A DNA stretch of 64,000 nucleotides from Escherichia phage dw-ec. A program made the position numbers and the translations under genes. Where the stretch lies: sequence record OL739525.1. The stretch is one strand, 5' to 3'. Below, piece by piece: positions 45,493 through 62,787 of the stretch (its first letter is position 1; every line of letters starts with the position of its first letter). The notes beneath the pieces are model-generated. The model did no database searches. It was not told the DNA's origin and worked only from the letters and a program-made list of their open reading frames with translations.

Positions 45493-45548
45493 GTTTCCTC
45501 CTATTTAATACATCTCACATTACCGCCCGTAAAGGGCGGCTTACAACA

Positions 45549-46274: not shown

Positions 46275-46283
46275 TATAACTCC

Positions 46284-46544
46284 TTATTTAAAATAGCTTT
46301 CTAGAAAGTTGCTAATATTTACTACAGTCTCACCCATGTAAATTCCTGCGAAACCGAAAACAAGCATACGTGGAATATTGAAATACCATTTATCCGCCGG
46401 AAAAGATGCCAGAATTACAATAGCAATTGCTATCAACATCATAAGAATTGTTGCTAAAATTATCATAAAAATGCCTCCAGGTATTTTGCACAATGGTAAG
46501 CTAAGAAACAAGAAACTACCGCATACCCAACTCCAGACATACAT
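46284..46544 (-). CDS. hypothetical membrane protein
   Basis: two hydrophobic helices. Confidence 0.45.
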   Translation of the reverse strand: MYVWSWVCGSFLFLSLPLCKIPGGIFMIILATILMMLIAIAIVILASFPADKWYFNIPRMLVFGFAGIYMGETVVNISNFLESYFK

Positions 46545-46657
46545 GAATCAATCGCAATACATACGGTTCTTTTCTTTGAATTCTTAGGAAAGCTTTCCGA
46601 AGCATTCATACAATAAAAAGAAAGCACACTGAAAACGATTAAAATGGCTAAGAACAT
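46463..46657 (-). CDS. hypothetical small membrane protein
   Basis: hydrophobic N-terminus; overlaps neighbour. Confidence 0.3.
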   Translation of the reverse strand: MFLAILIVFSVLSFYCMNASESFPKNSKKRTVCIAIDSCMSGVGYAVVSCFLAYHCAKYLEAFL

Positions 46658-46666
46658 TTTTCCTCC

Positions 46667-47794: not shown

Positions 47795-48003
47795 TTAAAA
47801 ACTGAAATTTTCAATCTGTTACACACTTCATCCAAATCTGCGTCGAGTAACGTTGTGGATGTTGCCAACATATAATCAATGCTTGTGAAACCTTGCCCTT
47901 TGGCATAGTCAAGCATATCTTCATACATATCTTCAAGATCACCGTCATCAAAAGTAGCTAGAAAATCCTCGTCCCCGCTACGAACATAAAATGCAGTACT
48001 CAT
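47782..48003 (-). CDS. hypothetical acidic protein
   Basis: ORF, 73 aa. Confidence 0.4.
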   Translation of the reverse strand: MSTAFYVRSGDEDFLATFDDGDLEDMYEDMLDYAKGQGFTSIDYMLATSTTLLDADLDEVCNRLKISVFKWED

Positions 48004-48191
48004 TCATCTTCATCCCAAGATTCAAAAACGCAGCAATCATCGGTTTCTATAATACCAACACGTCCGCAGGTATTGCAAGTGATTTTATCACCGTAGAATA
48101 AATAATTTTTATCACCCTCTGTGTTTACAGTTATGTCATTACTACCACAAGGGCAAGTCAGCCAACCAACAACAACGATATCTTTTTTCAT
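48000..48191 (-). CDS. hypothetical zinc-ribbon protein
   Basis: CPCG ... CNTCG cysteine pairs. Confidence 0.4.
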   Translation of the reverse strand: MKKDIVVVGWLTCPCGSNDITVNTEGDKNYLFYGDKITCNTCGRVGIIETDDCCVFESWDEDE

Positions 48192-48200
48192 AATCCCTCC

Positions 48201-48527
48201 TTAAGCGTTCAGTTCGTTGTTGAGTTCGTAAATCTCTTCTTGAAGAGCATCAATCTCTTCCTCCAAACGGGAGATCTCTTCTTTTAGATATACCGTTTCT
48301 GATTCTTTCTCTTCTAATTCATTTTCAAATTTTACTTTATTCGCCTCATTTTCATAATGCAGTTCAGCGTAATCATCACGCATTTGTTCAATAAGATGAA
48401 TCAGAGATAAGATATAGTTATCCCCAGTTTCATCTCGCCACTCTTCCCCGTGGCGCAAGATTGTGATTCGTCCCGTGTTTTCATCTAAAATTGTCTCATA
48501 TTTACGATCATCTGTATAAATCTGCAT
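48201..48527 (-). CDS. hypothetical coiled-coil protein
   Basis: ORF, 108 aa, heptad-rich C-terminus. Confidence 0.45.
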   Translation of the reverse strand: MQIYTDDRKYETILDENTGRITILRHGEEWRDETGDNYILSLIHLIEQMRDDYAELHYENEANKVKFENELEEKESETVYLKEEISRLEEEIDALQEEIYELNNELNA

Positions 48528-48536
48528 TATTACTCC

Positions 48537-48941
48537 TTATTGAAGTTTAAGTGAACCACGAAGACGTTTCTCTTGCTGATCACGAATATATTGTGGAACC
48601 TCGTGAATTGAATCATTACCGTGCCTATTTTCAACAACTAAAGAGATAACTTGATAACCAAACTCTTCAGCAAGAGTTAGATAAGGTTTAAGTTCTTTCT
48701 CTGTGGTTGAAGTGTTAGAAACAATAATCTTGTTAAGATTAGATGCCATAGCATCACGAACAATACTCTGACACCATGCGTGTGCTTTACCTACATTTTC
48801 TGGCTTCCAATCGTAAACACCACTTTCTGTATAATGATATTGATCTGCCTCACAGATAGGCCAATAACCTTCAGAAATAATTTCTGCTACCGTAGATTTA
48901 CCAGCACCTGAAACGCCACGTAAAATGATAAGTTGTTTCAT
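48537..48941 (-). CDS. P-loop polynucleotide kinase-like protein
   Basis: Walker A GVSGAGKST; N-terminus resembles the kinase domain of T4 polynucleotide kinase. Confidence 0.55.
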   Translation of the reverse strand: MKQLIILRGVSGAGKSTVAEIISEGYWPICEADQYHYTESGVYDWKPENVGKAHAWCQSIVRDAMASNLNKIIVSNTSTTEKELKPYLTLAEEFGYQVISLVVENRHGNDSIHEVPQYIRDQQEKRLRGSLKLQ

Positions 48942-49874
48942 TTATCCTCCAAAGAAGTTTTCGATTTTTTCACGTCGCTCTTGCTGATTTAAAGCAGCCC
49001 ATTGAGTCTTCGTAAAATTATTTCGAATCCATTCTAACAAAGCGTAATATTCTTCGTCAACAATTTGTTTGGCATTTTTTGGATTATCCCAAATCAGATC
49101 CCACTTTTTATCTCCACCACGCATAAGAAACTTCTTAGTAAGATAGTGTGGTGATTTAATTTTTAAAAGTAAGTTGAACGGATAGTTTGTTTCACGAACT
49201 ACAAACCCTTCGTGTTTACAATGTTTAGACATTTCAACAACATCTGAAAACTTAACCATTGGATGAACTTCAGGACGCTTAAATTTGGTGACAGAAGCAA
49301 TTCCATCAAGAGCACCTTCAGGTAACATAAAACTTGTCCCATCAGGATTTTGAATTCTGGCACCAATTAAGTATGCACCTGGTTCTTCTTCGACAATATG
49401 TGGATCAGAAGGATCACAGATTTCAAACAGGAAAGTTGCTTTTGCACTCTCTGCCCATTTGATGAAATGTTCTATGTCATCGCACTCTGAAACAATATGA
49501 TTCTTTGCAATACTTGCAAAATCTGATTCAAGGCTTCCTGTTGTCGATACAATAAGTTGACCTTTATATACACCTACAGAGGCCATAAAACCATTTACTT
49601 TACGAACCACATCTACAAGTTCATCCGCTGGTAGATCTGTGCCATTCTCAAAACGATTAAAAATCTTAGTGAAAGGCCAAATAACAACATTGTCATCAGC
49701 ATCAACAACGATTCCGCGACATTCTAGAAGACGAGAATCAATGCTCCATAAATTATCCCAGAAAACTTTGTTCTTATACTTAAGAACAGATAGACCAGAA
49801 TACTCTCCTTCTTTATATGTTTTCTTATGAACTAAACCTTTTTCAACCAAATCGTCGCAATTAAATTTAGTCAC
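48942..49874 (-). CDS. RNA ligase (Rnl1 family, T4 gp63-like)
   Basis: LLECRGIVV and FNRFEN match T4 Rnl1 ALECRGIMF and EKFFNLNEN; motif I KVNG, motif IV EGFVVRE, motif V KIKSPHY. Confidence 0.65.
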   Translation of the reverse strand: MTKFNCDDLVEKGLVHKKTYKEGEYSGLSVLKYKNKVFWDNLWSIDSRLLECRGIVVDADDNVVIWPFTKIFNRFENGTDLPADELVDVVRKVNGFMASVGVYKGQLIVSTTGSLESDFASIAKNHIVSECDDIEHFIKWAESAKATFLFEICDPSDPHIVEEEPGAYLIGARIQNPDGTSFMLPEGALDGIASVTKFKRPEVHPMVKFSDVVEMSKHCKHEGFVVRETNYPFNLLLKIKSPHYLTKKFLMRGGDKKWDLIWDNPKNAKQIVDEEYYALLEWIRNNFTKTQWAALNQQERREKIENFFGG

Positions 49875-49875
49875 A

Positions 49876-50427
49876 TTACTCTCCTTTGATTATTTTGTGA
49901 TGGTCTACAGTCACGATATCTCGTTTACTCATCATAGAAATTATCTCATCAAAATGCAAGATTTTTCCGTGTGCATCCCAACCCACATCTAACATTTTAC
50001 CATAAGCTTCATCAGGGAAAGATCCGTGGGAATGCCCGTGTAGCATGATTGATCCACGACCTTGTTTATTCCAGGAGGCAATAGGGTAATGACTTAAGAC
50101 GAAGAACAGCTTCTGGTATTTCACTTCGTCATAATACACCACTTCGCCATACTCTGCAAGCACTTCTCGGTGCTTGCTGTAATCATGATTCCCAACAAGA
50201 TAAGTGATATCCCCTTGCAGACGGGAAGCAATCTTACGGGTATCTTCTTCAGTCCCGAAACAGAAGTCGCCCAAATGCCACATCTTAACACCAGGGGTAG
50301 TAGCACATTTGTTCCATGCTTCGATCAAGGCTTCTGTCATGTGGTCCATATCTTCCCACGGACGATATTCAGGAGCAAACTCTCGAATGCGTTTATGCAT
50401 AAAATGCAAATCGCTTGTAATAAACAT
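49876..50427 (-). CDS. calcineurin-like metallophosphoesterase
   Basis: SDLHFMH, LGDFCFG, GNHD, HGHSH motifs. Confidence 0.65.
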   Translation of the reverse strand: MFITSDLHFMHKRIREFAPEYRPWEDMDHMTEALIEAWNKCATTPGVKMWHLGDFCFGTEEDTRKIASRLQGDITYLVGNHDYSKHREVLAEYGEVVYYDEVKYQKLFFVLSHYPIASWNKQGRGSIMLHGHSHGSFPDEAYGKMLDVGWDAHGKILHFDEIISMMSKRDIVTVDHHKIIKGE

Positions 50428-50783
50428 TAGTATAATCCCTCGCTAAATAATTCATGGTCGTGACCATTACGCTCATGGTCGATCTGGTCAGCATTTTCCG
50501 CGATGATGTAAGCATCCGCACGACTCCACCAATTGTAATACTGATCGATAAAGCCTTGATTATCTGGTGTGCACAAAGTTTTGTTGATTACACCTGCTTC
50601 TTTCAACACGTTTAACTGTGCATATAGTACAGGATTTGCATGTCGAACACAAGGAATAATTAACTCTTCGCCATTATTCAAAATATACTTATTTGCAGCA
50701 CAGACAATAACACGTTGCGCATAATGACCCTCACCCATCCAGGTAAGAGGTTGGTAACAAATGTTGTTTTCAATACCACTCAT
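50427..50783 (-). CDS. hypothetical protein
   Basis: ORF, 118 aa. Confidence 0.45.
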   Translation of the reverse strand: MSGIENNICYQPLTWMGEGHYAQRVIVCAANKYILNNGEELIIPCVRHANPVLYAQLNVLKEAGVINKTLCTPDNQGFIDQYYNWWSRADAYIIAENADQIDHERNGHDHELFSEGLY

Positions 50784-50942
50784 TGTTTCCTAATCCTCCT
50801 CTCTTAAATTATCCTCGAAAAAACTAGTATCTGGAAGTAAAAGATCATTGCTTGTGTCGGGCGAATCCTCTTCTTCTCTGTAGATAAAGTAACCTTCGTC
50901 CTCTTCTTGTTCCGACCAAACCGAATGATGCATGTTCTCTCC

Positions 50943-51299
50943 TTAGTAGTGCACACGAATCATTTTAATACCATAACGCTGCATGGATTCTTTTGCAAGC
51001 ATGAATTTATCCCCAGCGGCGGGATTAGAAGTATGCACGAAAATGGTAGGTGAACCAAAGCAAGGTTTACCAAACGCCAGAAGTTCTTCCAGGTGCAGGA
51101 AAACATCATACCCATCTTGGTCTGACTCCATACCTAAATCGTTGTCAAAATGCCACTCGTCTACAAAACGATAACCCTTCTGCACCTCATTCATGTAACG
51201 AGAGGCAAGAAGTTCCTGTGAGGTTTTAAACCAGATTGCATCTGGACAACCATAATCTTTTGGATCACGTAAATCATCAAGCCAAATAATAGTACCCAT
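50943..51299 (-). CDS. hypothetical protein
   Basis: ORF, 118 aa. Confidence 0.45.
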   Translation of the reverse strand: MGTIIWLDDLRDPKDYGCPDAIWFKTSQELLASRYMNEVQKGYRFVDEWHFDNDLGMESDQDGYDVFLHLEELLAFGKPCFGSPTIFVHTSNPAAGDKFMLAKESMQRYGIKMIRVHY

Positions 51300-51309
51300 A
51301 TAACCTCCT

Positions 51310-51780
51310 CTAAGCTGGCATGATTAAAAAAGAACTCTCCACTTCAAAATGCCAATCATCCACAAGCCCTGATTCCCAATCCTTCTCTTCATGGAAAGAG
51401 CAAATCCAACGGTACATACCTGGCGGTGTATTCTCAACATCTTCTGGCAACCCATAATCCAAAGCTGTCTTACCGTTCTCTGTAAAACCAGGATGGAGAT
51501 TAGGAGCTTTCAGTACAGAAACCATACCTCCAACATCCACAGCTACGATCCACTCTGTCATGTATGGGCTGTCATATTGAGGCTCATCAGAACCTACCTC
51601 AACAGCCTCTGTGCGTAAGATGATAATAGCCTGCTCTGTGATTGGGGCTTTGACAATATACCCGTGATCCTCAAAAAGATCGATAACCTCGAACTCATCG
51701 CCGTTTTCGACACCATAACTCTTATTCAAAGAGATAAACTTCGGGTTATCATCATAAGCTTTAGTTACTTTAATTCTCAT
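51310..51780 (-). CDS. hypothetical protein
   Basis: ORF, 156 aa. Confidence 0.45.
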   Translation of the reverse strand: MRIKVTKAYDDNPKFISLNKSYGVENGDEFEVIDLFEDHGYIVKAPITEQAIIILRTEAVEVGSDEPQYDSPYMTEWIVAVDVGGMVSVLKAPNLHPGFTENGKTALDYGLPEDVENTPPGMYRWICSFHEEKDWESGLVDDWHFEVESSFLIMPA

Positions 51781-52001
51781 TTTTCCTCCTTCACTTTAAC
51801 CTCAAATTCTACAGGCTTACCCTCAATGTAAAAACACTGATACTCTGCCTTATCATCCTCATCATGAGGCCAAGTTACCAAGGAGTTATAGCAATCTTCT
51901 GGTGCTTTGAAGATGGTTTTAGTCTCCACAGTAACATTCCCATTAAGTGTTGCCAATACCACCCACCCAGCTACATGGATCATAGTGCCTCCACTTTCCA
52001 C
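51777..52001 (-). CDS. hypothetical protein
   Basis: ORF, 74 aa. Confidence 0.4.
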   Translation of the reverse strand: MESGGTMIHVAGWVVLATLNGNVTVETKTIFKAPEDCYNSLVTWPHDEDDKAEYQCFYIEGKPVEFEVKVKEEK

Positions 52002-52162
52002 GTTTTACCCTTATCAACCAAGGTCTTTGCTACAGCATACTCCTTCCCATTAACAAGGAAATAATAAACGATAAAAGATTTCCCGATTGTTACTGTCTTA
52101 GTAACCTCTACACGTTTAACACCTTGCATGTATTTTGCCTTACCGGAATAGAGTAGAATCAT
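51980..52162 (-). CDS. hypothetical protein
   Basis: ORF, 60 aa. Confidence 0.35.
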   Translation of the reverse strand: MILLYSGKAKYMQGVKRVEVTKTVTIGKSFIVYYFLVNGKEYAVAKTLVDKGKTWKVEAL

Positions 52163-52440
52163 TTTGCATTCCTCTTGTTGTTGATAACATCCATAGCAGT
52201 ATATGGTTTATTAGTGCCATGATACTCCAGAATCATTGGAGAGCCTTCTTGCACTACTTCAAAGATACCATAAACAGAACTTTCAGCAAATACCATTTGC
52301 TTCGTTCCTTCATCATTTACAACAAGAGAAAACTTCTTGCCTGTTCCGTTGAGGATCTCGTATTTCTTGCCAGCAGTGAATAATCCAGAGTACCACTCAT
52401 TATCTGTTGCTTTTACACACTTCAGAAAAGTCTTGATCAT
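52159..52440 (-). CDS. hypothetical protein
   Basis: ORF, 93 aa. Confidence 0.4.
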   Translation of the reverse strand: MIKTFLKCVKATDNEWYSGLFTAGKKYEILNGTGKKFSLVVNDEGTKQMVFAESSVYGIFEVVQEGSPMILEYHGTNKPYTAMDVINNKRNAK

Positions 52441-52790
52441 TTCTTTTTGCTCCTCTTTTTAGATTTCTCATACAAACCTAACACAGCCGCTTCTTTTGCA
52501 CAAGTAGGAACTGAAGTCATTCCTCTTCTTTTTGCTTCTGGTAGTTGCAAAGTCCATATTCCCCACCAATAAATTTGGTCTGCCGTGAGTGGTTCAGCCA
52601 TTGGATCTGCCTCCTGCTCCTCAAGACGTTGCAACGCTTCTTCAATCTTCTCGATTGGTGTGTCAAAGACGAATGCCTCCGTATCAAATTTATCTTTCTT
52701 AGGAACTGATTTGGCTACTTTGAGAACCTCGTTTTTCGGTTTCTTAGTAACGTTCTTTGGCTTTGATAACTTCTTCGGTGTTTTCGCCAC
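52437..52790 (-). CDS. hypothetical protein with Lys-rich N-terminus (possible nucleic-acid binding)
   Basis: N-terminal KTPKKLSKPKNVTKKPKN. Confidence 0.4.
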   Translation of the reverse strand: MAKTPKKLSKPKNVTKKPKNEVLKVAKSVPKKDKFDTEAFVFDTPIEKIEEALQRLEEQEADPMAEPLTADQIYWWGIWTLQLPEAKRRGMTSVPTCAKEAAVLGLYEKSKKRSKKK

Positions 52791-52983
52791 TTACTACCTC
52801 CATACGATCTAAAAAGTCATTCACAAATCTCCAGTAACGTTGACCTGTTCTAAGATCTTCATAGATAACCACAGGATCAAACACTTTAGATATTCCGGCA
52901 GGTTTTGGAAATTCCACTACCGTATATAAACCACCTTTTGCTACACAAGAATAGGTTACGCCTGTAATTGGATAGTTGCTCAT
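52744..52983 (-). CDS. hypothetical protein
   Basis: ORF, 79 aa. Confidence 0.4.
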   Translation of the reverse strand: MSNYPITGVTYSCVAKGGLYTVVEFPKPAGISKVFDPVVIYEDLRTGQRYWRFVNDFLDRMEVVSGENTEEVIKAKERY

Positions 52984-53174
52984 TTCTTTACGTACTCCAT
53001 GATTGGGGTATGGTCGCCAGTAAGCGTAACACGGCTGTAGGACACATCTTGTGTCTTCAGTGTATCAATCCACTCTAAGAAGTGTTCTTTCGCTTCTGTG
53101 TAGTTCTGTGTGCCTTTAACAACGTGTATACCATCTAGAGTTACACGGAATACCATTTGAATAACGTCTTTCAT
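52980..53174 (-). CDS. hypothetical protein
   Basis: ORF, 64 aa. Confidence 0.4.
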   Translation of the reverse strand: MKDVIQMVFRVTLDGIHVVKGTQNYTEAKEHFLEWIDTLKTQDVSYSRVTLTGDHTPIMEYVKK

Positions 53175-53270
53175 TTCTTACCTCCTTTGTTGTCAAAATA
53201 ACTTACCAGAACATCGTGAACCACACACATGGCAAAAATCAGAACAATTGTTGTCAGGACTGGATTCTCA

Positions 53271-53594
53271 CTAATTAGTGCTATCATCTTCAACCACCTC
53301 CAATTGCCTTTCGAGTTTGACTTTGTTTGAGAACTGATAATGACACAACTTACATTGCATGTCAACAATCTGATCGTGATTTAACCCTACAATTTTAACT
53401 TCCTTTGCACCATCCCATTCCAAATACTCAAAGCCATCCAAATGATTACTCTTGTCCAACAAGAATGCTATCTGCTGCCATTCAATCTGAATGTCATTTA
53501 AATGATATGCTGCACAGAAGATATCCTCGTAGTAAAAGACGATCATTGTCATTGCTTCGTCCAGCACAACTACCTCTTGTCTTGTAAATCTCAT
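53271..53594 (-). CDS. hypothetical protein (first gene of minus block)
   Basis: RBS ttaggagg before ATG at 53594. Confidence 0.5.
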   Translation of the reverse strand: MRFTRQEVVVLDEAMTMIVFYYEDIFCAAYHLNDIQIEWQQIAFLLDKSNHLDGFEYLEWDGAKEVKIVGLNHDQIVDMQCKLCHYQFSNKVKLERQLEVVEDDSTN

Positions 53595-54064
53595 TCTAGC
53601 CTCCTAAACGCGTCTCTGACGCACTTTTTATATATAAGATGATAAATCACCTTACCTAGTAAGTGAACTTGCTCTACGAGCCTCTTATGAAGCTTATGTT
53701 ATAGGCTATACTATTGCTACCTGTTTAAGCAAGGTTTTTGCACACAGAAAATAATTTTTAATTAAACTCTTGACTTTTGTGTTCGAAGTATGCTACCCTA
53801 GAAATCTATTAACGAGCGCAGCGAGTTAAGGTTTTAGGTTGTTGATGTAGTACTCTGTACTCCGTACTAGATTAATAATTATTAAATATTAATAATAAAT
53901 AATTATTAGATCTAACAAACAGGTACAGTGTATCAGAACTGGTACGTACAGATCAACTTCTATCAATTAAAAAAATAAAATAATAAATTATTATAAATAA
54001 TACTTGATCTATAGATCAGTATGAAGTACAGTACGTAACATCTTAACAAGAATGGAGGTGTGCA
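53595..54064. promoter_or_regulatory. AT-rich divergent control region with palindromes and clustered GTAC motifs
   Basis: separates the divergent gene blocks; palindromes ttaataattattaa (53871-53885) and gatctatagatc (54006-54017); nine GTAC within about 190 bp. Confidence 0.5.
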
Positions 54065-54250
54065 ATGATTAGTGAGAATCCGTGCAAATGGCATCATGTG
54101 CCTATTAAAGATTGTATGTCTTGTAATCCACGTTCTATTTATAACATTGCATCTTATGATGATGACAATGTGTTAGACGATGATGAAGGCTGGGAGGATT
54201 TGGATTGGACTGGTTATGAAACCAAAAAGGATAAAATTATTCCTAGTTGA
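54065..54250 (+). CDS. hypothetical protein
   Basis: RBS aatggaggtgtgcaATG. Confidence 0.45.
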   Translation: MISENPCKWHHVPIKDCMSCNPRSIYNIASYDDDNVLDDDEGWEDLDWTGYETKKDKIIPS

Positions 54251-54287
54251 CTTAAGATATCCTTCGTGCTAAACTAGAAGTGAGGAG

Positions 54288-54539
54288 ATGCCGATCACTC
54301 CCCATTTGGGGTTCGAAGGATATATGCAAAATAGCTTTTATTTTAGGTGCCGTGCTTGTAATAGGCATTTGACAAACCACTCCAGACGTGATAAAAATGG
54401 AGTCATCAAGGAATCAGACCTCTGTTCTATTTGCACAGGTTTGGCTTTTGATGATAGTCCCGAAAGGGTTTATCAGCATCAATGTATAACAGACGTTCTC
54501 GTGTCAAACTTGGTAGAGGACGAACAACTAACAGATTAG
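54288..54539 (+). CDS. hypothetical zinc-finger-like protein
   Basis: CRACNRH ... CSIC cysteine pairs. Confidence 0.4.
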   Translation: MPITPHLGFEGYMQNSFYFRCRACNRHLTNHSRRDKNGVIKESDLCSICTGLAFDDSPERVYQHQCITDVLVSNLVEDEQLTD

Positions 54540-54547
54540 GAGGAACA

Positions 54548-54796
54548 ATGTCTCTATTAGAAAAACACGTGTTTGAAGATGGTAACGGCAATGCAGTTTT
54601 TCTTTTCCATCCAGAAAAATACACATCTGAAAACAATGGTACAACTTCTATTGTAATCACTAAAGATGTTAAAGTTATTGATTTCTTGGCTCTGATGCGA
54701 GAGATGGATCTTGAAATTAATACTTTTAACGCAGAAGCTTTGGTTGTTGCTCTTCTGGAAAAGAAAGATAGTGAAGAAGTAGCAGAATATGCTTAA
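54548..54796 (+). CDS. hypothetical protein
   Basis: ATG at 54548 after RBS ttaggagg; in frame with track ORF 54482..54796. Confidence 0.45.
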   Translation: MSLLEKHVFEDGNGNAVFLFHPEKYTSENNGTTSIVITKDVKVIDFLALMREMDLEINTFNAEALVVALLEKKDSEEVAEYA

Positions 54797-54803
54797 ATAA
54801 CTA

Positions 54804-54833
54804 TTGACAAACGTATCCTTCATATGTTAGGAT
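54804..54833 (+). promoter_or_regulatory. sigma70-like promoter driving the tRNA cluster
   Basis: TTGACA at 54804-54809, TAGGAT 18 bp downstream. Confidence 0.5.
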
Positions 54834-55042
54834 ACGTTCATCAAGTGTGGTAACAGGGTCGTTGACTTTTGTTAAGAGGGGCTTGCACTGCGGTAGTGTT
54901 AGAGACTACTTCTTCAGAGGTTAGCTACCAAAGAGGAAAAGGAATAGTCTCGGCTCAAGAACTTTTACGCTGAAAGTTGGGCTTGGTCTTAGAGAATGTA
55001 GCGGTTCTCTACAATCGTCAGCGTCTCTGTTACCACATTTAT

Positions 55043-55117
55043 GGCCCTGTAGCTCAATGGGAGAGCTGTCGGCTCATAACCGATAGGTAGCTGGATCGAA
55101 ACCAGCCAGGGCCACCA
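55043..55117 (+). tRNA. tRNA-Met (anticodon CAU)
   Basis: acceptor ggccctg/cagggcc, anticodon loop ctCATaa, T-arm and encoded CCA (hand fold). Confidence 0.7.
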
Positions 55118-55119
55118 AC

Positions 55120-55194
55120 GTCTTTATGGTGTAATGGATAGCACAGGAGTCTTCTAAACTCTTAGTCAAGGTTCGATTCCTTGTAAAGACACCA
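55120..55194 (+). tRNA. tRNA-Arg (anticodon UCU)
   Basis: acceptor gtcttta/taaagac, anticodon loop ctTCTaa, T-loop ggttcgattcc, CCA (hand fold). Confidence 0.65.
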
Positions 55195-55390
55195 GAACAT
55201 TTTAACATGAATTAGCTCAAGTGATTTGAACCCACTACTGATCATGGTGGCAGAGAATGAGGCAAGTATGTCAGACATTATAAACAAAGGCCACGGTTAT
55301 ATTAGAAGACATAAATGCTCGAAGAGCACCGTTCGTTGAGAACGGGGGTTGGTGGAGTCACCATTCATGGTAAAATGTTTTAAAAAACTA

Positions 55391-55420
55391 TTGACAACTA
55401 ACATTATTTTATGTTAGATT
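55391..55420 (+). promoter_or_regulatory. sigma70-like promoter inside the tRNA cluster
   Basis: TTGACA at 55391-55396, TTAGAT/TAGATT 17-18 bp downstream. Confidence 0.45.
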
Positions 55421-55428
55421 ATAAGTAT

Positions 55429-55519
55429 GGAAGGGCAAATCGATGTGGCGACGAAAACGGTCTTGAAAACCGCCGAGCTTGAAAGAGCCTTGGGAGTTCG
55501 ACTCTCCCTCCTTCCGCCA
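55429..55519 (+). tRNA. tRNA-Ser (anticodon UGA), type II
   Basis: acceptor ggaaggg/tccttcc, anticodon loop ctTGAaa, long variable arm, CCA (hand fold). Confidence 0.6.
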
Positions 55520-55524
55520 GATTA

Positions 55525-55610
55525 GGTAGATTGGTGAAATGGTAGCCACAACAGTTTGCTAAACTGTAGTCGGAAACGGCGTGTAGGTTCGAGTCCTACA
55601 TCTACCGCCA
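55525..55610 (+). tRNA. tRNA-Ser (anticodon GCU), type II
   Basis: acceptor ggtagat/atctacc, anticodon stem acagt/actgt with loop ttGCTaa, long variable arm, CCA. Confidence 0.65.
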
Positions 55611-55740
55611 AGTTCTTTTTAATATAGCTTACTTTAATAGAGTAAACTTTCGGCAGATGGCCTCCACCATCTTACCGATAACTCATAGTTAGTGGTGTGA
55701 ACACTGGCTATTTTAAAAAGAATTTAAATATTAGTATTTA

Positions 55741-55828
55741 GGTGAGTTAATTCCGTAGGGGTAGCGGGGCAGACTGTAAATCTGTTATCATTGCGATTCG
55801 GGTGGTTCGACTCCATCACTCACCACCA
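55741..55828 (+). tRNA. tRNA-Tyr (anticodon GUA), type II
   Basis: acceptor ggtgagt/actcacc, anticodon loop ctGTAaa, long variable arm, CCA. Confidence 0.65.
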
Positions 55829-55834
55829 AATTAA

Positions 55835-55920
55835 GATGAGTTGGCTGAATGGTTTAAGCGGCGGACTGTTAATCCGTGTTCGAAAGAACGATATAGGTTC
55901 AAATCCTATACTCATCGCCA
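55835..55920 (+). tRNA. type II tRNA, anticodon apparently GUU (Asn-reading), identity uncertain
   Basis: acceptor gatgagt/actcatc, 3-bp D stem, anticodon stem gcgga/tccgt with loop ctGTTaa, variable-arm hairpin gttc-gaaa-gaac, CCA (hand fold). Confidence 0.5.
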
Positions 55921-55927
55921 GAATTAT

Positions 55928-56004
55928 GGACTTGTAGAGTTAAGGTAAACCCCCAGTCGCCAAGAGGCTTCTGGAATTGCAGGTATCGAATCCTGCCGAG
56001 TCCC
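55928..56004 (+). ncRNA. tRNA-like sequence, fold unresolved (possible degenerate tRNA)
   Basis: acceptor-like pairing ggacttg/cgagtcc and T-arm-like gcagg..cctgc, but no clean anticodon arm. Confidence 0.3.
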
Positions 56005-56010
56005 AGTTTT

Positions 56011-56085
56011 GCTCCTATAGTATAATGGCTATTACAACGGTTTTGTAATCCGTGGATCTCTGTTCGATTCAGAGTGGGAGCACCA
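56011..56085 (+). tRNA. tRNA-Thr (anticodon UGU), tentative
   Basis: acceptor gctccta/tgggagc, T-arm ctctg-ttcgatt-cagag, anticodon loop ttTGTaa with a U-U at the stem end, CCA. Confidence 0.5.
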
Positions 56086-56358
56086 ACATAACATTAAGAG
56101 CACTGTGATTGATCGTCGTATCCTGTGCACAAGGTCTGCTCGAAAGACAGTGTTCTTAGTATTGTGTTGATCACACAAAGAGTTACCTGAAACTTGACCG
56201 GAGTAGGGTTGGATGGGGCAAAAGAAGAAGCGGCTCTCCCATCGACAGCAACGAAGAATAATATTTGACTTTGGTTTTGTATTATTTTAAGTTAGCTTAC
56301 CGAACGTAGGGCTAGTCACCCAATGGGATACTCGTCACTGTCCCACTCAATAAAACTA

Positions 56359-56388
56359 TTGACAACCAATAGTAAAATGTAGTATAGT
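56359..56388 (+). promoter_or_regulatory. sigma70-like promoter inside the tRNA cluster
   Basis: TTGACA at 56359-56364, TATAGT at 56383-56388. Confidence 0.55.
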
Positions 56389-56399
56389 AAAGATGTAGG

Positions 56400-56473
56400 G
56401 CGTTCTTGGTGTAGCGGTAGCATTCCGTCCTTCCAAGTCGGCGGCACGAGTTCGATCCTCGTAGAACGCTCCA
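56400..56473 (+). tRNA. tRNA-Gly (anticodon UCC)
   Basis: acceptor gcgttct/agaacgc, T-arm acgag-ttcgatc-ctcgt, anticodon loop ctTCCaa, CCA. Confidence 0.6.
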
Positions 56474-56571
56474 AATTATTTAATAAAGGGTTGCCAGAAA
56501 ACTTTCTCTTTTACTCATGGTTTTCTCCTTCTCTCACACCTCTTCTGGTTGCCCTTCATTAAATGATTTAT

Positions 56572-56647
56572 TGGTTTGTAGTGTAGTCCGGTAGCACACG
56601 ACACTTTGACTGTCGTAGGTTTGGTTCAAATCCAGACAGACCAGCCA
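56572..56647 (+). tRNA. tRNA-Gln (anticodon UUG)
   Basis: U1-A72 acceptor tggtttg/cagacca, D stem gtgt/gcac, anticodon stem cgaca/tgtcg with loop ctTTGac, CCA. Confidence 0.65.
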
Positions 56648-56652
56648 TATAA

Positions 56653-56729
56653 CGGAATTTAGCTCAGTTTGGTAGAGCATACGCTTTGGGAGCGTAGGGT
56701 CGCAGGTTCGAATCCTGCAATTCCGACCA
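56653..56729 (+). tRNA. tRNA-Pro (anticodon UGG)
   Basis: acceptor cggaatt/aattccg, anticodon stem tacgc/gcgta with loop ttTGGga, T-loop ggttcgaatcc, CCA. Confidence 0.7.
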
Positions 56730-56735
56730 ATCAAA

Positions 56736-56809
56736 TGTTTCGTAGTTCAATGGTAGAACCCACGACTGATAATCGTGAGACACAAGTTCGATTCTTGTCG
56801 AAACAACCA
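56736..56809 (+). tRNA. tRNA-Ile (anticodon GAU)
   Basis: acceptor tgtttcg/cgaaaca, anticodon stem cacga/tcgtg with loop ctGATaa, T-arm acaag-ttcgatt-cttgt, CCA. Confidence 0.65.
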
Positions 56810-56811
56810 GT

Positions 56812-56881
56812 TTCCCGTTAGACTTACAGGATAAGAGTTCCACAACTTATTGTGATGCTGGTTCGAATCCAGCACGGGATA
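56812..56881 (+). ncRNA. tRNA-like sequence with canonical T-arm but aberrant anticodon region
   Basis: T-arm gctgg-ttcgaat-ccagc and partial acceptor pairing; anticodon arm would need a 10-nt loop; no CCA. Confidence 0.3.
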
Positions 56882-56887
56882 CATAAT

Positions 56888-56966
56888 AGCGGGATAGAGG
56901 AGTCTGGTCGTCCTCGCCAGTTTCATATGCTGGAGATCATCGGTTCAAATCCGATTCCCGCCTCCA
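56888..56966 (+). tRNA. tRNA with anticodon CAU (Met or lysidine-Ile), A1-C72 mismatch
   Basis: acceptor agcggga/tcccgcc, D stem gagg/cctc, anticodon loop ttCATat, T-arm atcgg-ttcaaat-ccgat, CCA. Confidence 0.6.
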
Positions 56967-57082
56967 AATATCGCTTGCCAGCGGTATCTTTGAAGACCTT
57001 GCCTGGTTCCTTCTAAGATGGAGGGGTGCGACTCCTTAACGCACAATTATAATAAAGCATTTCAAATTAACAGTATTTATTA

Positions 57083-57105
57083 GCCTCCTTATTGGAGGCT
57101 TTTTG
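57083..57105 (+). terminator. intrinsic terminator ending the tRNA cluster
   Basis: hairpin gcctcc-ttatt-ggaggc followed by TTTTT. Confidence 0.75.
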
Positions 57106-57123
57106 CTATCTATTGAATAAAAC

Positions 57124-57152
57124 TTGACTTATTATTTTTTATATGTTAAGAT
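57124..57152 (+). promoter_or_regulatory. sigma70-like promoter (TTGACT, 17 bp spacer, TAAGAT)
   Basis: TTGACT at 57124-57129, TAAGAT at 57147-57152. Confidence 0.5.
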
Positions 57153-57173
57153 AAAGTTTAGGAGGATTTTATT

Positions 57174-57470
57174 ATGCCTAAACTAAAACGTGGTCGTGGA
57201 AGACCAACAGCCGAAATGCAACAGATCTACGCAATGGATGCGGCGCAAGCAAGTGTAAAAGAATTATTTGCAGAGCATTATTTAGAAGCTATGCGATATA
57301 TTGTTGAACTTGTTAATGATAAGGATGCAGCAAAACCTCTCCGCTTCCAAGCAGCTAAAGCTATTAAAGAGCAAGTAGAAGAATGGTTAGAAGAACATTA
57401 TGAAGCTATGGAAGAAGAAACCCCTGCCGTGCAGAATACAGATGACGTTCCTAAAAAGATCGTAATCTAA
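57174..57470 (+). CDS. hypothetical DNA-binding protein with N-terminal KRGRGRPT motif (possible small terminase subunit)
   Basis: RBS taggagga; GRP[ST]-type motif common at small-terminase N-termini; lies upstream of the large terminase. Confidence 0.35.
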   Translation: MPKLKRGRGRPTAEMQQIYAMDAAQASVKELFAEHYLEAMRYIVELVNDKDAAKPLRFQAAKAIKEQVEEWLEEHYEAMEEETPAVQNTDDVPKKIVI

Positions 57471-57485
57471 TCCCTCTCCTCTCTT

Positions 57486-57555
57486 GGGGCTTTGCCCCTC
57501 CTCCTTGTTATTTTTAACACCCCTCTCCGAAAGGTTAGGGGCTTTTTTTATTTTT
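57486..57555 (+). terminator. tandem intrinsic terminators
   Basis: hairpin ggggc-ttt-gcccc with T-rich tail, then cccct...agggg hairpin followed by CTTTTTTTATTTT. Confidence 0.6.
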
Positions 57556-57611
57556 AATGCTTGCAATTGTATATCATTTTGTGATAAGATCAGATATGAG
57601 GAGGATAAAAT

Positions 57612-57782
57612 ATGCGCAATTTTGTAGTTAAAAATGATTTTAACCGTTCTTCTTATCATAAAGATAAAAAGAATGATTACACACGGGTTTGGAACTTGGA
57701 GGAAGAACTTTATGATGACAGAGAAGACTTGGGAAGAGATCCTAGCGGAGGCTCAACCAATGGAAGTGAAGAAGATAGTTAA
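57612..57782 (+). CDS. hypothetical small protein
   Basis: unlisted ORF with strong RBS gaggagga before ATG at 57612. Confidence 0.3.
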   Translation: MRNFVVKNDFNRSSYHKDKKNDYTRVWNLEEELYDDREDLGRDPSGGSTNGSEEDS

Positions 57783-57832
57783 CAACGCCCCTTCTCTTCC
57801 TAAAATAAAATTTTATGAGGAAGTAGAAGATA

Positions 57833-58225
57833 ATGAATCTAAAGACTAAAACTGTATTAAGTTTTGTTTTAATTGTTGTTCTTATTCTTGCCGGAATGTT
57901 TGCTTATAACAAGATACGTGAGTCTGGTTACAAAGATGGTGTTGCCTATCAAACGCAAGTATATCAAGCAGCCCAAGCAAAAGCAAAACAAGATTTCGAT
58001 GTTCTTCAAAAAAGAGCGGATGAAGAAAGAGCATTATTAAATACTCAAATAAACAACTTGTCTAAAAACAATGCACAATTAAAAGCAGATTTAGAGAAGA
58101 AGAAACAAACGATCAATGAGGATACAACGAATTATGCAAAAACTAATTCTGGCAGTATGTCTTGCTTTGCCCCTAATGATGACGGGTTGTTCATCATCAA
58201 CAAAAGTTTCCCCAGTTCTTATTGA
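57833..58225 (+). CDS. putative i-spanin (inner-membrane spanin subunit)
   Basis: N-terminal TM helix VLSFVLIVVLILAGMFAY followed by coiled-coil periplasmic domain; embedded partner gene. Confidence 0.5.
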   Translation: MNLKTKTVLSFVLIVVLILAGMFAYNKIRESGYKDGVAYQTQVYQAAQAKAKQDFDVLQKRADEERALLNTQINNLSKNNAQLKADLEKKKQTINEDTTNYAKTNSGSMSCFAPNDDGLFIINKSFPSSY

Positions 58226-58460
58226 TGAGTGTAAGGCTGTAGCCATAGAAAAGGTTAAAGGTCCAGATTCGGACTTGATGGATAAAGTATCGACACCTGT
58301 GCCATACACTAAAAATCAAATTGCAAAAGGGGCTAGTAGATCTGAAGTTGTTAACAACCAAACTCAAAACAATGCTCTTTGGGAGCAAGATAGACGAAAG
58401 GTTCTAGGTTTACAAACATATATTAAAACACTGCAAGAAAAAGGTATTATTGCTGAATAA
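58134..58460 (+). CDS. putative o-spanin (outer-membrane lipoprotein) overlapping the i-spanin gene
   Basis: lipoprotein signal ILAVCLALPLMMTGC with lipobox-like MTGC; starts inside the i-spanin gene in another frame. Confidence 0.45.
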   Translation: MQKLILAVCLALPLMMTGCSSSTKVSPVLIDECKAVAIEKVKGPDSDLMDKVSTPVPYTKNQIAKGASRSEVVNNQTQNNALWEQDRRKVLGLQTYIKTLQEKGIIAE

Positions 58461-58469
58461 GGAGGGAAT

Positions 58470-60545
58470 GTGGCAAAGAAAAAGGCAGCAGGTAGTTTAG
58501 CTGGAGTAGATATTGAAGTAAAGGCTCAACCAGGTAAACAGACTCTTGCAATGGATTTAATGCCAGAAGTTATGATTTATGGTGGTGCCGCTGGATGTGT
58601 TTCTGCTGAAACGGAATATCTTACAAAAGATGGTTGGAGGCAGATTAGTGAATATTCGGGAGAGGATATTTACCAATACAATCCTAAGAATAAGCGTTTA
58701 GAATTGGTAACACCTTATTTTGTAGAATACGATTTAAATGGAGATAACCTATACAGAATAACAAATGGTGTAGGATTGTTCCAAGAACTTAGTATGGAAC
58801 ACCGTTTTGTATTCTATAAGAAAAAGAAATCAAAGAAACATTTCGAGATTCTTGTAGGAGATCTTATTGCATTACAGCAAATAGGAAAACCCCTTCAAGG
58901 TTATGTAGAAAATCCATTCGGTAAACGTGTTCCTTTTAACATACCTGGTAAAAAGAGCACTTACTTAAAAATACACGAGGTTATTTCAACAGATGATAAG
59001 AAATATTGTTTTGAGACTCCAAGCAGTTATATTGTCTTTAGACGTGGCGATCACTGCTTCGTTACTGGGAATAGCGGCAAGTCTCGTCTGCTATTGCTGA
59101 AAGCTTTAAAATACGCCTACAAAGACCCTTTGTTTGGTGGAATACTTTTCCGTAAGAACACCACTGCTCACCGTAAACCAGGTGGTCTGTTTACAGAAGC
59201 AAAACGTTTGTATCTTCCTTTACAACCGCACGTAAAAGAAAGTACAATGGATATCATTTTTGAAGCCACTGGTGGTGGAACCCTCAAATTTGACCATTTG
59301 GAAAATGATAACGTAACAGCAGAAACAAACCATCAGGGTACACAGTATTCAATGGTAGGTTTTGACGAGTTAACCCACTTCACACAATATGAAATGCTCT
59401 ATCTTCTGGGACGTATGCGTTCAGAGTCAGAAACAAGTTTCATGTTGTGCACATGTAACCCTGACGCAGATAGTTGGGTTTTGAATTGGGTGTTACCTTA
59501 TCTTGATGAGGGTGGTTATCCTAGAGAAGATATGTGTGGTAAACAAAAATATTTCATCATTGTTAACGATGAACCTGTTTTTGCTGACACACCTGAAGAA
59601 CTGAAAGAAAAATATCCAGAAAACTGTTTCATGGAAAACCCTAATACAGGGGAGACAGTTGTTATTGAACCACAAACTTTCGTATTTATTGGTGGGACAA
59701 TATTTGATAACCCAGAACTCATTAGGCTTAACCCTAATTACTTAGCACAGCTTAAATCACAAACAGCGATTAAAAGAGCACAGCTTCTGGACGGTTGTTG
59801 GTTTGCACGTATTCAGAAAGAATCTTTCTTTCAACGTGAATGGTTACATAAAATATCTTATAAAGATGTTCCTAACAATCTTAAACTAATGCGAGCATGG
59901 GATAAAGCTGTTTCAGTTCCTACAGAAACTTACCGTTATCCAGACTATACAACATCTGTCAAAATGGGTAAAGACCAAGATGGTAATATCTACATCTTTG
60001 GCGACTATGATTATGATGCTGTGGATGAGAAAAGTAAAATTTTTGGAAGGTTTCGAAGACTACCTGGGGAAAGGGATAACCTGATTCTAAATCAATGTAA
60101 GATCGATGGACCAGAAGTTACAGTAGTTCTTCCTAAAGACCCATCTGGTGCTGGGACAATAGAATATACAGAGTCTGCAAAGAAACTCATTCTGGAAGGT
60201 TTTGTTGTTAAACCAGATGCTATGCCAGGTAACAAGAAAAAGCTTCAGCGTTTTATGCCTTTTAGTAGTGCGTGTCAAAACGGTTTTGTTTATATTGTTG
60301 AAGATTCTTTCCCTAATGTGGAAACTTTAACCCACTTTTATAAAGAATTGGAATCTTTCAATGGTGAAAGATCTACAGCCACTATTAAAGATGACATTCC
60401 CGATGCTGCTGCCTCTTGTTTTAATACTCTGTCAAAAGAGAATACTTTCAAGGCAGTAGCTATCCCTACAACAACAAATGCTCCTACAGGATACAGTAGA
60501 ATGAACAGCGGATTTCACCAACCGTATAGTGTCCGTAAAAGATAA
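58470..60545 (+). CDS. terminase large subunit (intein-containing precursor)
   Basis: Walker A split as GGAAG / SGKS around the insertion, Walker B MVGFDELTHF, nuclease domain downstream. Confidence 0.8.
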   Translation: MAKKKAAGSLAGVDIEVKAQPGKQTLAMDLMPEVMIYGGAAGCVSAETEYLTKDGWRQISEYSGEDIYQYNPKNKRLELVTPYFVEYDLNGDNLYRITNGVGLFQELSMEHRFVFYKKKKSKKHFEILVGDLIALQQIGKPLQGYVENPFGKRVPFNIPGKKSTYLKIHEVISTDDKKYCFETPSSYIVFRRGDHCFVTGNSGKSRLLLLKALKYAYKDPLFGGILFRKNTTAHRKPGGLFTEAKRLYLPLQPHVKESTMDIIFEATGGGTLKFDHLENDNVTAETNHQGTQYSMVGFDELTHFTQYEMLYLLGRMRSESETSFMLCTCNPDADSWVLNWVLPYLDEGGYPREDMCGKQKYFIIVNDEPVFADTPEELKEKYPENCFMENPNTGETVVIEPQTFVFIGGTIFDNPELIRLNPNYLAQLKSQTAIKRAQLLDGCWFARIQKESFFQREWLHKISYKDVPNNLKLMRAWDKAVSVPTETYRYPDYTTSVKMGKDQDGNIYIFGDYDYDAVDEKSKIFGRFRRLPGERDNLILNQCKIDGPEVTVVLPKDPSGAGTIEYTESAKKLILEGFVVKPDAMPGNKKKLQRFMPFSSACQNGFVYIVEDSFPNVETLTHFYKELESFNGERSTATIKDDIPDAAASCFNTLSKENTFKAVAIPTTTNAPTGYSRMNSGFHQPYSVRKR
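58596..59072 (+). mobile_element. mini-intein (Hint domain, about 159 aa) inserted in the terminase Walker A motif
   Basis: begins CVSAETEYLTKDGW (Cys1, block A), ends ...HCFVTGN followed by Ser+1; flanking exteins rejoin to GGAAGSGKS. Confidence 0.65.
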
Positions 60546-60548
60546 TTG

Positions 60549-60577
60549 TTGACAAAAGTCACTTTAAAGTGTATTAT
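60549..60577 (+). promoter_or_regulatory. sigma70-like promoter upstream of portal gene
   Basis: TTGACA at 60549-60554, TATTAT at 60572-60577. Confidence 0.55.
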
Positions 60578-60646
60578 AACTAGATAGGTGAGGTTGTATA
60601 TAATACAGCCTTGCCTTAACGATTTTATACCTGACTGGAGGAACAA

Positions 60647-62212: not shown

Positions 62213-62240
62213 AAATATTTAATATTTTTTAATTTTTCTA

Positions 62241-62269: not shown

Positions 62270-62305
62270 AAGATTTATGGGATATCTGTTTTTAAGAGGT
62301 TTCAA

Positions 62306-62785: not shown

Positions 62786-62787
62786 TC

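Follow-up and report, generated by a model that had tools for sequence, protein, structure and literature searches.

Phage early-promoter regions are a well-known kind of feature. Among the closest described systems are the tandem sigma-70 promoters P1–P2 of Escherichia coli rrnB, the early promoters of T5, the A1–A3 promoters of T7 and the predicted extended −10 promoters of rV5. Promoters also form part of transcription-activated replication origins: the T7 primary origin comprises promoters 1.1A and 1.1B and a 61-bp AT-rich region, and T4 oriF and oriG comprise a middle promoter and a downstream unwinding element. Clusters of GATC, a methylatable palindrome, are found in other cis-acting sites, including oriC, P1 pac and Mu mom. 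Here we compare these systems with a 470-bp intergenic gap of Escherichia phage dw-ec, which lies at positions 53595–54064 of a 64,000-nucleotide stretch of sequence record OL739525.1 (hereafter the window) and separates a leftward from a rightward gene block. We lean towards the view that this gap is the main divergent early-promoter region of the phage, a compound one that would be read by host sigma-70 RNA polymerase, as conserved promoter-like sequences suggest. What is new here is a promoter whose extended −10 reads TACCCT and whose leader contains a mini-hairpin motif, AT tracts more extreme than any others in the genome, and a GTAC cluster that is private to the lineage although the genome is otherwise purged of this word. 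We found no publication that describes the gap, the three-copy promoter class represented in it or the leader box of its P1 promoter, and the 70 GenBank relatives annotate nothing in the gap apart from one 'repeat_region' tag. Phapecoctaviruses, the genus concerned, are widely isolated for therapy and biocontrol, and some 70% of their genes, along with every one of their control signals, have yet to be characterised. The map presented below gives a likely master early-promoter region and a promoter class that recurs three times per genome, with a conserved mini-hairpin motif in its leader. Start sites could be mapped at these elements, engineering could draw on them for strong portable promoters and safe insertion points, and the search for the origin could begin from them.

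A predicted divergent early-promoter region

The window belongs to a phAPEC8-like myovirus of the genus Phapecoctavirus, subfamily Stephanstirmvirinae; positions 53000–55000 are 98.7% identical to DE16, ZCKP1 and ESCO13, and 70 GenBank records match. The whole genome measures about 151 kb; the remaining 88 kb were judged from the relative Schickermooser. We compared the gap with the clade of phiWec188/179 and PsgM04F (~80% identity), with Justusliebigvirus PHB05, Klebsiella phage phi1_175008 and Citrobacter phage Tr1, and with four IMG/VR contigs. The comparison spans five Stephanstirmvirinae clades, and twelve near-identical strains served for close-strain comparison. In the search for homologues, an exact 26-mer scan of IMG/VR returned one contig and a protein-guided scan returned four loci; tblastn with the 61-amino-acid open reading frame (ORF) to the right of the gap reached no further than one non-syntenic Seunavirus.

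The sequence-only reading had proposed a bidirectional promoter region, and the comparison bears this out at the level of sequence: sigma-70-type hexamers stand in the gap with the right spacing and orientation and are conserved in five clades of the subfamily. Three of the putative promoters, P1, P2 and P_L1, agree with TTGACA and TATAAT at the key positions and have spacers of 16–18 bp. The rightward P1 (plus strand, 53770–53799), identified by a promoter-class scan and by its conservation, has an extended −10 and reads TTGACT-N15-TGcTACCCT, which as a sigma-70 site is TTGACT-N18-TACCCT with a TG extension; its 12-mer TATGCTACCCTA is invariant in the five clades. The second rightward promoter, P2 (plus strand, 54004–54032; TTGATC-N17-TACAGT), has orthologues in other clades, with TTGACT or TTGACC as −35 and TAGAGT or TACACT as −10. 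A 14-nt palindrome, TGATCTATAGATCA (54005–54018), spans the P2 −35 and spacer, and GTACAGTAC (54026–54034) covers the −10. P1 and P2 keep their hexamers and spacing in phiWec188/179, PsgM04F, PHB05, phi1_175008, Tr1 and the four IMG/VR contigs, and the sequence between them diverges. In the record of EP57 (L040), which at 130.7 kb is short for the genus, about 38 bp over the P2 −10 and part of the leader are missing, and the left half of the gap is short by about 20 bp; either a natural deletion or a fault of assembly may account for this.

On the opposite strand, a consensus scan found the proximal promoter P_L1 (minus strand, 53667–53639; TTCACT-N17-TATCAT), whose GGTGATTTATCATC block is conserved in phiWec, PHB05, the Klebsiella phage and Tr1. 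A distal candidate, P_L2 (minus strand, 53732–53705; TTGCTT-N16-TATAGC), was read from the sequence, and its equivalent in the phiWec clade is TTGTGT-N16-TATAGT, upstream of an extra ORF of 70 amino acids. This leftward ORF lies within the homologous gap of the sister clade (phiWec188/179 and PsgM04F; L003–L005, 2573–2785) and is missing from the phAPEC8 cluster, where remnants of its promoter alone persist. The 5′ leader of the leftward mRNA would carry a hairpin, GCGTC-AGA-GACGC (minus strand, 53610–53622), just upstream of an AGGAGG ribosome-binding site (RBS), and this hairpin is conserved in the phiWec clade.

All of the compared clades share one layout, in which leftward promoters, P1, the leader box, a variable stretch, an AT tract, P2 and an RBS follow one another. 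The variable stretch is 130–190 nt long and holds the small conserved blocks GATCTAACAGAC and GCTCTATAC; the block GATCTAACAAAC of the window (plus strand, 53909–53920) has the conserved counterpart GATCTAACAGAC in PHB05 and Tr1, and phiWec has GATCTTAAAGAC in its place. Sites of the form TTGAC-N17/18-TANNNT are also four times more frequent in the window than in shuffled sequence (32 versus ~8), most of them co-oriented with genes. Together, the conserved layout and the enrichment of this class suggest a compound early-promoter region, with the AT tract ahead of P2 as an upstream or curvature element.

On the ORF map the gap is exactly as first delimited, between a leftward ORF (53271–53594) and a rightward ORF (54065–54250); tRNAs and PHROGs functions of the neighbours complete the setting. 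P_L2 and P_L1 would drive the leftward block of early and nucleotide-metabolism genes, which extends for ~34 kb from the gap down to ~19.4 kb and includes small early ORFs, RNA ligase, DNA ligase, a polymerase exonuclease subunit, thymidylate synthase and ribonucleotide reductase (PHROGs). The tandem P1 and P2, the latter preceded by a 38-nt pure A/T tract that may act as an upstream or curvature element, would drive the small ORFs and ten tRNAs (55043–56966) of the rightward block, and its structural genes would be reached by read-through or served by later promoters. The first rightward gene (54065–54250) encodes the conserved 61-amino-acid protein and has a GGAGG RBS and ATG at 54054–54067 (plus strand; read from the sequence and the ORF map). 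Further downstream lie the genes for the large terminase, TerL (58470–60545, 4.4 kb from the gap), and the portal (60647–62212).

With the rrnB, T5, T7 and rV5 promoters the predicted ones share a TTGAC-type −35, a TAnnnT −10 with a TG extension, a spacing of 17–18 bp, an A/T run directly upstream of the −35, a tandem pair ahead of a tRNA cluster and a divergent partner on the opposite strand. Unlike in those systems, the A/T run of the gap is 38 nt long and pure, about twice the canonical upstream element, the −10 of P1 is TACCCT, and a conserved mini-hairpin box stands in the initially transcribed region. Several observations weigh against a promoter region as the main function. The −10 of P1 is weak by consensus, AT tract 1 (described below) has no neighbouring −35, and we found no transcriptome of a Stephanstirmvirinae phage in the literature. 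Nowhere else in the 151 kb is there a GTAC cluster, and the two duplex segments of lowest stability also fall in the gap, a combination that exceeds ordinary promoter needs; the other divergent gap, at 130.3 kb of the five-block Schickermooser genome, is 118 bp long and plain. GTAC is also strongly avoided genome-wide, and the keeping of 8–10 copies suggests that they are tolerated for a reason. As for host factors, a check of the gap by eye alone showed no DnaA box and no good IHF site, and the boxA-like string TGCTCTATACTAACAA of PHB05 is not kept in the window.

A box with a mini-hairpin motif downstream of P1

Directly after P1 stands a leader box, TTAAC-GA-GCGCAGC-GA-GTTAA (plus strand, 53809–53829; core 53813–53825). 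Its core, CGAGCG-N1-2-AGCGAG, begins 13 nt beyond P1 and reads CGAGCG(C/A)AGCGAG at the gap position of the different clades. The flanks are invariant across clades and copies, and the centre is free (C, A, G, T, AT or GG). Because invariant flanks around a free centre are the signature of the 'mini-hairpin DNA' motif GCGNAGC/GCGNNAGC, we assign the box to that motif on its sequence; the form is GCGCAGC in the gap and GCGAAGC, GCGGAGC, GCGTAGC, GCGATAGC or GCGGGAGC in paralogues and other contigs. The mini-hairpin consists of two G–C pairs and a sheared G·A pair, melts at 70–76 °C as the seven-nucleotide GCGNAGC, and has been reported by Kimoto and Hirao at the primase-dependent origins of G4, St-1 and alpha3, at RSF1010 ssiA and at N4 early promoters (PMC13037366). 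The flanking GA/GA could, in our view, add tandem sheared G·A pairs. The closing stem differs between clades (TTAAC/GTTAA, GCC/GGN or CCCA/TGGG), and the outer stem is 83% paired with two compensatory pairs, a score that was reached by 4 of 500 shuffles and equally by a control slid by +1, so that the covariation is no more than suggestive. The box would occupy about +7 to +20 of the P1 transcript, where the non-template strand could fold as the GCGNAGC mini-hairpin.

P1 and its box are present in three copies per genome, as a search with TGNTACCCT revealed. The first copy is that of the gap (TTGACTTTTGTGTTCGAAGTATGCTACCCTAGAAATCTATTAACGAGCGCAGCGAGT; window 53770–53826, plus strand) and the second lies on the minus strand at window ~15762–15700 (TTGACTTTTTCAAAAAAATATGGTACCCTAAACATATGTTTACGAGCGATAGCGAGT). 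The third (TTGACTTTTTTCAAAAAATATGCTACCCTAACCCCGAAGGGTCGAGCGATAGCGAGT; minus strand) was located at ~128590–128660 of Schickermooser (~128.65 kb; L047/L048), in the gap between gp190 and gp189, where it is co-oriented with the genes and directly upstream of them, and where a CCC-GAA-GGG mini-hairpin overlaps the predicted start site. Many copies of the module have such a second mini-hairpin, NNN-GAA-NNN, overlapping the predicted start site, which makes it more plausible that the element acts as DNA, on the non-template strand, than as RNA. The second copy sits in a 360-bp gap (15596–15955), antisense within a rightward block, with two TTGATAGGTRAG repeats upstream and a divergent partner promoter at 15889–15918. 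Downstream of it we see a strong hairpin, GTTTCATgttaCTCACgataGTGAGgtATGAAAC, but no ORF that convinces, and a non-coding RNA may therefore be encoded here; Rfam gave no match over 15200–16100.

The module extends beyond the genus. A scan of IMG/VR for TACCCTA-N10-15-CGAGCG-N1-2-AGCGAG returned 41 loci, against about 4 expected by our estimate. Complete Stephanstirmvirinae contigs in that database have three copies each, and ~27 unrelated small viral contigs from marine and other sources (among L050–L089) carry TACCCTATCCCCCCC(A/T)ACGAGCG(A/G/C)AGCGAGTGGG. In the small contigs that we examined, the motif forms a divergent inverted pair ~60 nt apart, sometimes at contig ends, and in two of them the pair lies just upstream of an ORF that we read as putatively terminase-like. 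Further variants of the motif are present in L071, L067/L080 and L082.

Non-template hairpins with the same core are formed by the E. coli RfaH ops element (GCGGTAGC) and by the Bacteroides UpxY element opsX (YGCGNAGCR) (PMC11213015). With these elements the box has in common the GCG-N(1-2)-AGC core in the non-template strand of an operon leader and its repetition at several transcription units of one genome; it differs from them in lying only ~7–20 nt from the start site and in its extra invariant GA/GA flanks. It falls outside the RfaH ops family, whose 12-nt consensus is GGCGGTAGCGTG (G5 and T6 are read by RfaH and the pause is at T11), because G5 and T11 are not kept: the loop of the window box, GAGCGCAGCGAG, is one base shorter than that of ops, and copies 2 and 3 (GAGCGATAGCGAG) match 9 of the 12 positions and lack both G5 and T11. 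We identified no NusG-like gene in the phage. With the mini-hairpin initiation sites of G4, St-1, alpha3 and RSF1010 ssiA and with the N4 early promoters, the box shares GCGNAGC/GCGNNAGC, a free N, an invariant G and A, and a position near starts of RNA synthesis. In those systems dedicated primases or a virion RNA polymerase work on templates that are single-stranded, whereas the box lies in duplex DNA downstream of a predicted sigma-70 promoter. It may work like ops, as a signal for single-strand initiation or, at +7 to +20, as an operator, and no other element of the gap is as good a candidate for a specific regulatory site. If it is an ops-like or priming signal, a motif of a few model systems would extend to large virulent phages and uncultured marine viruses.

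The 19-mer AACGAGCGCAGCGAGTTAA also occurs, as an exact match, in 20 diverse bacterial genomes (L010–L029; genome-contig scan), among them Bacteroidota, Luteimonas and Clostridia, and these include no phage relatives. In Bacteroidota it stands inside a longer hairpin, (C)AGGATCAAC-GAGCGCAGCGA-GTTAATCCT(G), and an Ignavibacterium contig has it twice, 118 bp apart. These bacterial loci look like REP (repetitive extragenic palindromic)-like repeats built on the same mini-hairpin.

AT tracts and a GTAC cluster private to one lineage

Between P1 and P2 lie two 38-nt tracts of pure A/T. AT tract 1 (53871–53908) is a near-palindrome at the core of a dyad of ~90 bp (53846–53935, centred on 53890/53891) and is specific to the lineage, its counterpart in other clades not being extreme. 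AT tract 2 (53965–54002) abuts the −35 of P2, and its position is conserved in all clades, its sequence not; elsewhere the A/T tract measures 40–50 nt and drifts by slippage, and its end always abuts a −35. Placed 1 nt before the P2 −35 in all clades, tract 2 matches an UP element (A/T at about −40 to −60), which tract 1 does not. The two tracts are the most AT-rich 40-mers (39/40) and the two least stable 50-bp segments of the window, ~5 standard deviations from the mean, and nothing in the remaining 88 kb of Schickermooser equals them. A third AT-rich spot of the window, next in rank, is at 62207–62269, between the portal gene and the next gene, where a 30-nt run of pure A/T stands directly upstream of TTGACA-N17-TAGACT; its sequence suggests that it is likely to be a strong promoter inside the structural block.

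The palindromes that had drawn attention to the gap are there, each once in the window (TTAATAATTATTAA at 53872, GATCTATAGATC at 54006), together with the core GTACGTAC at 53942. Two of the eight 14-nt palindromes of the window fall in the gap. Perfect 12-nt palindromes number 21 in the window and 20 in shuffles, and we rejected palindromes as such as a special feature for want of a window-wide excess. AGATCT was likewise rejected as a special motif, having 34 copies genome-wide.

A GTAC cluster had also been noted, with nine copies; the cluster stands, with eight copies in 186 bp (53850–54034), at 53850, 53857, 53864, 53923, 53942, 53946, 54026 and 54031. It is far denser than its surroundings, as had been said: elsewhere in the window, and throughout the remaining 88 kb as judged from Schickermooser, 200 bp contain three at most. 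No tetramer of the window is as depleted as GTAC (58 observed versus 177 expected under a second-order Markov model, ratio 0.33) or as clustered (Poisson p 1.6e-11), and the density of GTAC is 0.9 per kb here versus 2–3.6 per kb in sister clades. CCGG and GGCC also occur at about one third of their expected frequency in the window, CTAG is at 0.57 and GATC is not depleted; such depletion of tetramers is the usual signature of restriction avoidance.

Three GTACT units make up the array GTACTCTGTACTCCGTACT (plus strand, 53850–53868), which is the left arm of two inverted repeats. Most close relatives have five units, and ten GTAC sites in all; this genome has a 13-bp deletion. A copy of the P2 −10 segment, GTACAGT, and GTACGTAC follow at 53923–53949 (plus strand; sequence comparison), and GTACGTAC stands in place of block GCTCTATAC that other clades conserve. 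A direct repeat, D1, with a spacing of 105 bp has the form 'AT tract - TAGATC - N8-10 - GTACAGT'. The left array repeats, in inverted orientation, the segment of P2 that comprises the spacer and −10: in ESCO13, 18 of 21 positions match and none of 500 shuffles is as good, and in the window 6 of 500 shuffles are. Single-strand folds of the region, which includes the ~90-bp dyad, are more stable than those of shuffles (z about −3 for both RNA and DNA). We infer that the GTAC cluster and AT tract 1 were added in the phAPEC8 lineage by local direct and inverted duplication of 'AT tract - TAGATC - N8-10 - GTACAGTAC', to which slippage of the GTACT unit also contributed. By our estimate the eight sites go back to ~3–4 independent seeds multiplied by micro-duplication. 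Because the excess is, on that estimate, borderline when seeds rather than copies are counted, the cluster may be a tolerated by-product of duplication, although its survival in a genome that purges GTAC still calls for explanation. It does not behave as a miniature inverted-repeat element: inverted arms exist, but what they enclose has homologues in the other clades, and the genome has no second such cluster.

The suggestion that the GTAC motifs are binding sites of a phage regulator finds no support in the comparison. The cluster is confined to the phAPEC8 species cluster; sister clades have 0–3 copies at the homologous place, and aligned positions differ (for example, GGTACGTACAGATC versus GCTCTATACTGATC). 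Among near-identical strains the copy number varies, anhysbys having lost the site at 53923, and nieznany lacks a 72-bp module that includes GTACGTAC and most of AT tract 2. The cluster and AT tract 1 would constitute no conserved operator and would at most tune P2 or the P1 leader in this lineage; a better operator candidate, judged by its invariance, is the box at 53813–53825, which had gone unremarked.

Alternative functions of the gap

The readings that follow and the promoter reading are not mutually exclusive. It is possible, though doubtful, that the gap is a transcription-activated replication origin, alone or besides its promoter role. P1 would fire; the GCGNAGC mini-hairpin on the non-template strand would stabilise an R-loop or give a priming or helicase-loading signal; the pure A/T tracts and the 90-bp dyad would unwind; and a T7-like primase–helicase and a Pol I-type polymerase would take over, as at the T7 primary origin and T4 oriF/oriG. 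The phage does encode a gp4-like primase–helicase and a Pol I, the genome's two least stable segments lie 65 and 160 nt downstream of P1, and a promoter followed by an AT tract, the arrangement that marks such origins, is conserved in all clades. The primase-dependent origins named above are reported to have mini-hairpin motifs, the dyad symmetry and the single-strand folding (each with z about −3) would suit an origin, and no initiator-type gene is evident nearby, as expected of origins primed by transcription. With the T7 and T4 origins the gap has in common a promoter and then an extreme AT tract within ~200 bp, a T7-like replisome and no adjacent initiator gene; it differs in that its AT tract also abuts a second predicted promoter and that its promoters would be of host sigma-70 type. 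Yet the AT tract abuts a conserved −35 and is explained by a promoter upstream element, the other two P1-type modules have no comparable tract, nieznany lacks 72 bp including most of tract 2, and there is no conserved iteron-like repeat. An iteron-type origin, with at least three direct repeats of ~17–22 bp in helical phase and an initiator gene, is not what the gap shows: its repeat units are of 5–8 bp with irregular spacing, and its neighbours are small ORFs and tRNAs. The cumulative GC-skew minimum falls at 52–54 kb, but skew follows gene strand everywhere and so holds no independent information; we rejected it as evidence for an origin, and in rV5 it was likewise judged uninformative. An origin of undescribed build seems unlikely. 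In such an origin the first 20 transcribed bases of P1 would expose one or two ultra-stable GNA mini-hairpins, for R-loop holding or for priming and helicase loading, ahead of the 90-bp AT-centred dyad flanked by inverted arrays of an avoided and probably modified GTAC. If it were true, the promoter–hairpin module, with three copies per genome and divergent pairs in unrelated marine contigs, would amount to a start signal that is widespread but has escaped recognition, serving either replication or factor-dependent antitermination.

Rather unlikely, in our judgement, is that the GTAC sites are functional recognition sites in this lineage, either an operator array for a clade-specific protein or a methylation-sensitive cluster at P2 or an origin. 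For such a role speak the position of the sole cluster in a GTAC-purged genome, and in the clade with the strongest depletion, the coverage of the P2 −10 by two sites, and the inversion of the arrays around the AT core. Against it, the cluster is unconserved beyond one species cluster, its units are spaced irregularly (5, 7 and 8 bp) and out of phase with the helix, the copy number varies, this genome itself lacking two units, and no longer motif is common to the surroundings of the sites. The sequence of BI-EHEC (L046; 99.2% identity over 20 kb, against window 43811–63576) bears on the question: of 19 compared GTAC sites, 12 read ATAC, always in the same strand sense and in genes and gap alike, and two more are disrupted by insertions, one as GATAC and one as GGTATGCATAC. 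This assembly was made from Oxford Nanopore reads only, with Guppy 4.0.11, Flye and Medaka (PMC8686590). Since a one-sided, motif-specific G-to-A error is expected from a modified base with that nanopore chemistry, the ATAC reads are probably a base-modification artefact, and GTAC would be modified in that virion DNA. That restriction pressure has truly removed these sites is less likely, given that the 12 changes share one direction, although it would be compatible with the three of five coding changes that are synonymous. The GTACs of ETEC-TG, a phage from the same laboratory, are normal, which means that the host may be the source of the modification. As the ATAC reads look like an artefact, we rejected BI-EHEC as proof that GTAC is dispensable. 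Two candidate methyltransferases with an NPPF motif (PHROG 799) are encoded by the phage, one at window 28513–29022 (minus strand; PHROGs) and one of 264 amino acids at 37305–38099 of the Schickermooser segment L047 (minus strand), between Pol I and the primase–helicase; the latter has no Pfam or PDB match, and specificity for GTAC is not assignable. Like the GATC clusters of oriC, P1 pac and Mu mom, the gap has many copies of a 4-bp palindrome in ~200 bp around an AT-rich core, with indirect signs that the word is modified; unlike them, the word is GTAC with no assigned enzyme, the cluster is limited to one species cluster and the genome termini are elsewhere. The GTAC result joins avoidance of a restriction-type word, its probable modification and one tolerated cluster. 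We think it very improbable that the interval from P1 to P2 is a non-coding RNA or an RNase III-type processing hairpin, in which the GUACU array would pair with downstream AGUAC and enclose the AT core. The RNA fold of 53806–54035 (z = −2.98) has a predicted long-range stem joining the two GTAC arms, the inverted repeat is significant in ESCO13-type relatives, and other clades keep GATCTAACAGAC and GCTCTATAC in this interval, but the arms are unconserved beyond the species cluster, the sequence between them consists of A and U only and has little structure, and the right arm overlaps the P2 −10, so that only P1 transcripts would hold it. Rfam covariance models matched only tRNA in 53000–55100 at E ≤ 1. 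Scarcely credible is a packaging site or physical genome end (a terminal repeat or pac), with the GTAC arrays as terminase signals. Relatives do have short direct terminal repeats (Schickermooser, 328–329 bp; BME3, 342 bp; Gotham, 459 bp), TerL is 4.4 kb downstream, and the GenBank record of nieznany starts inside a neighbouring ORF, but a start inside a gene is arbitrary. The Schickermooser record has an identical 329-bp repeat at both ends, with its gap at 54.5 kb, and the homologue of that repeat is window 212–540 (97% identity), which places the genome ends 53 kb from the gap; on this mapping we rejected a terminus or pac. The physical genome end probably lies inside the window at this homologue, to judge by the sequence, and window 1–211 has no match to the sequence preceding the right-hand repeat of Schickermooser. 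Among all of these possibilities, a compound divergent early-promoter region remains the reading that we favour.

A further observation concerns Schickermooser at 103.7–106.8 kb (L047, 40702–43846), where four consecutive annotated glycosyltransferase genes adjoin the primase–helicase gene and are followed by a tellurite-resistance-like cluster of TerD, TerF-like, TelA and TerC.

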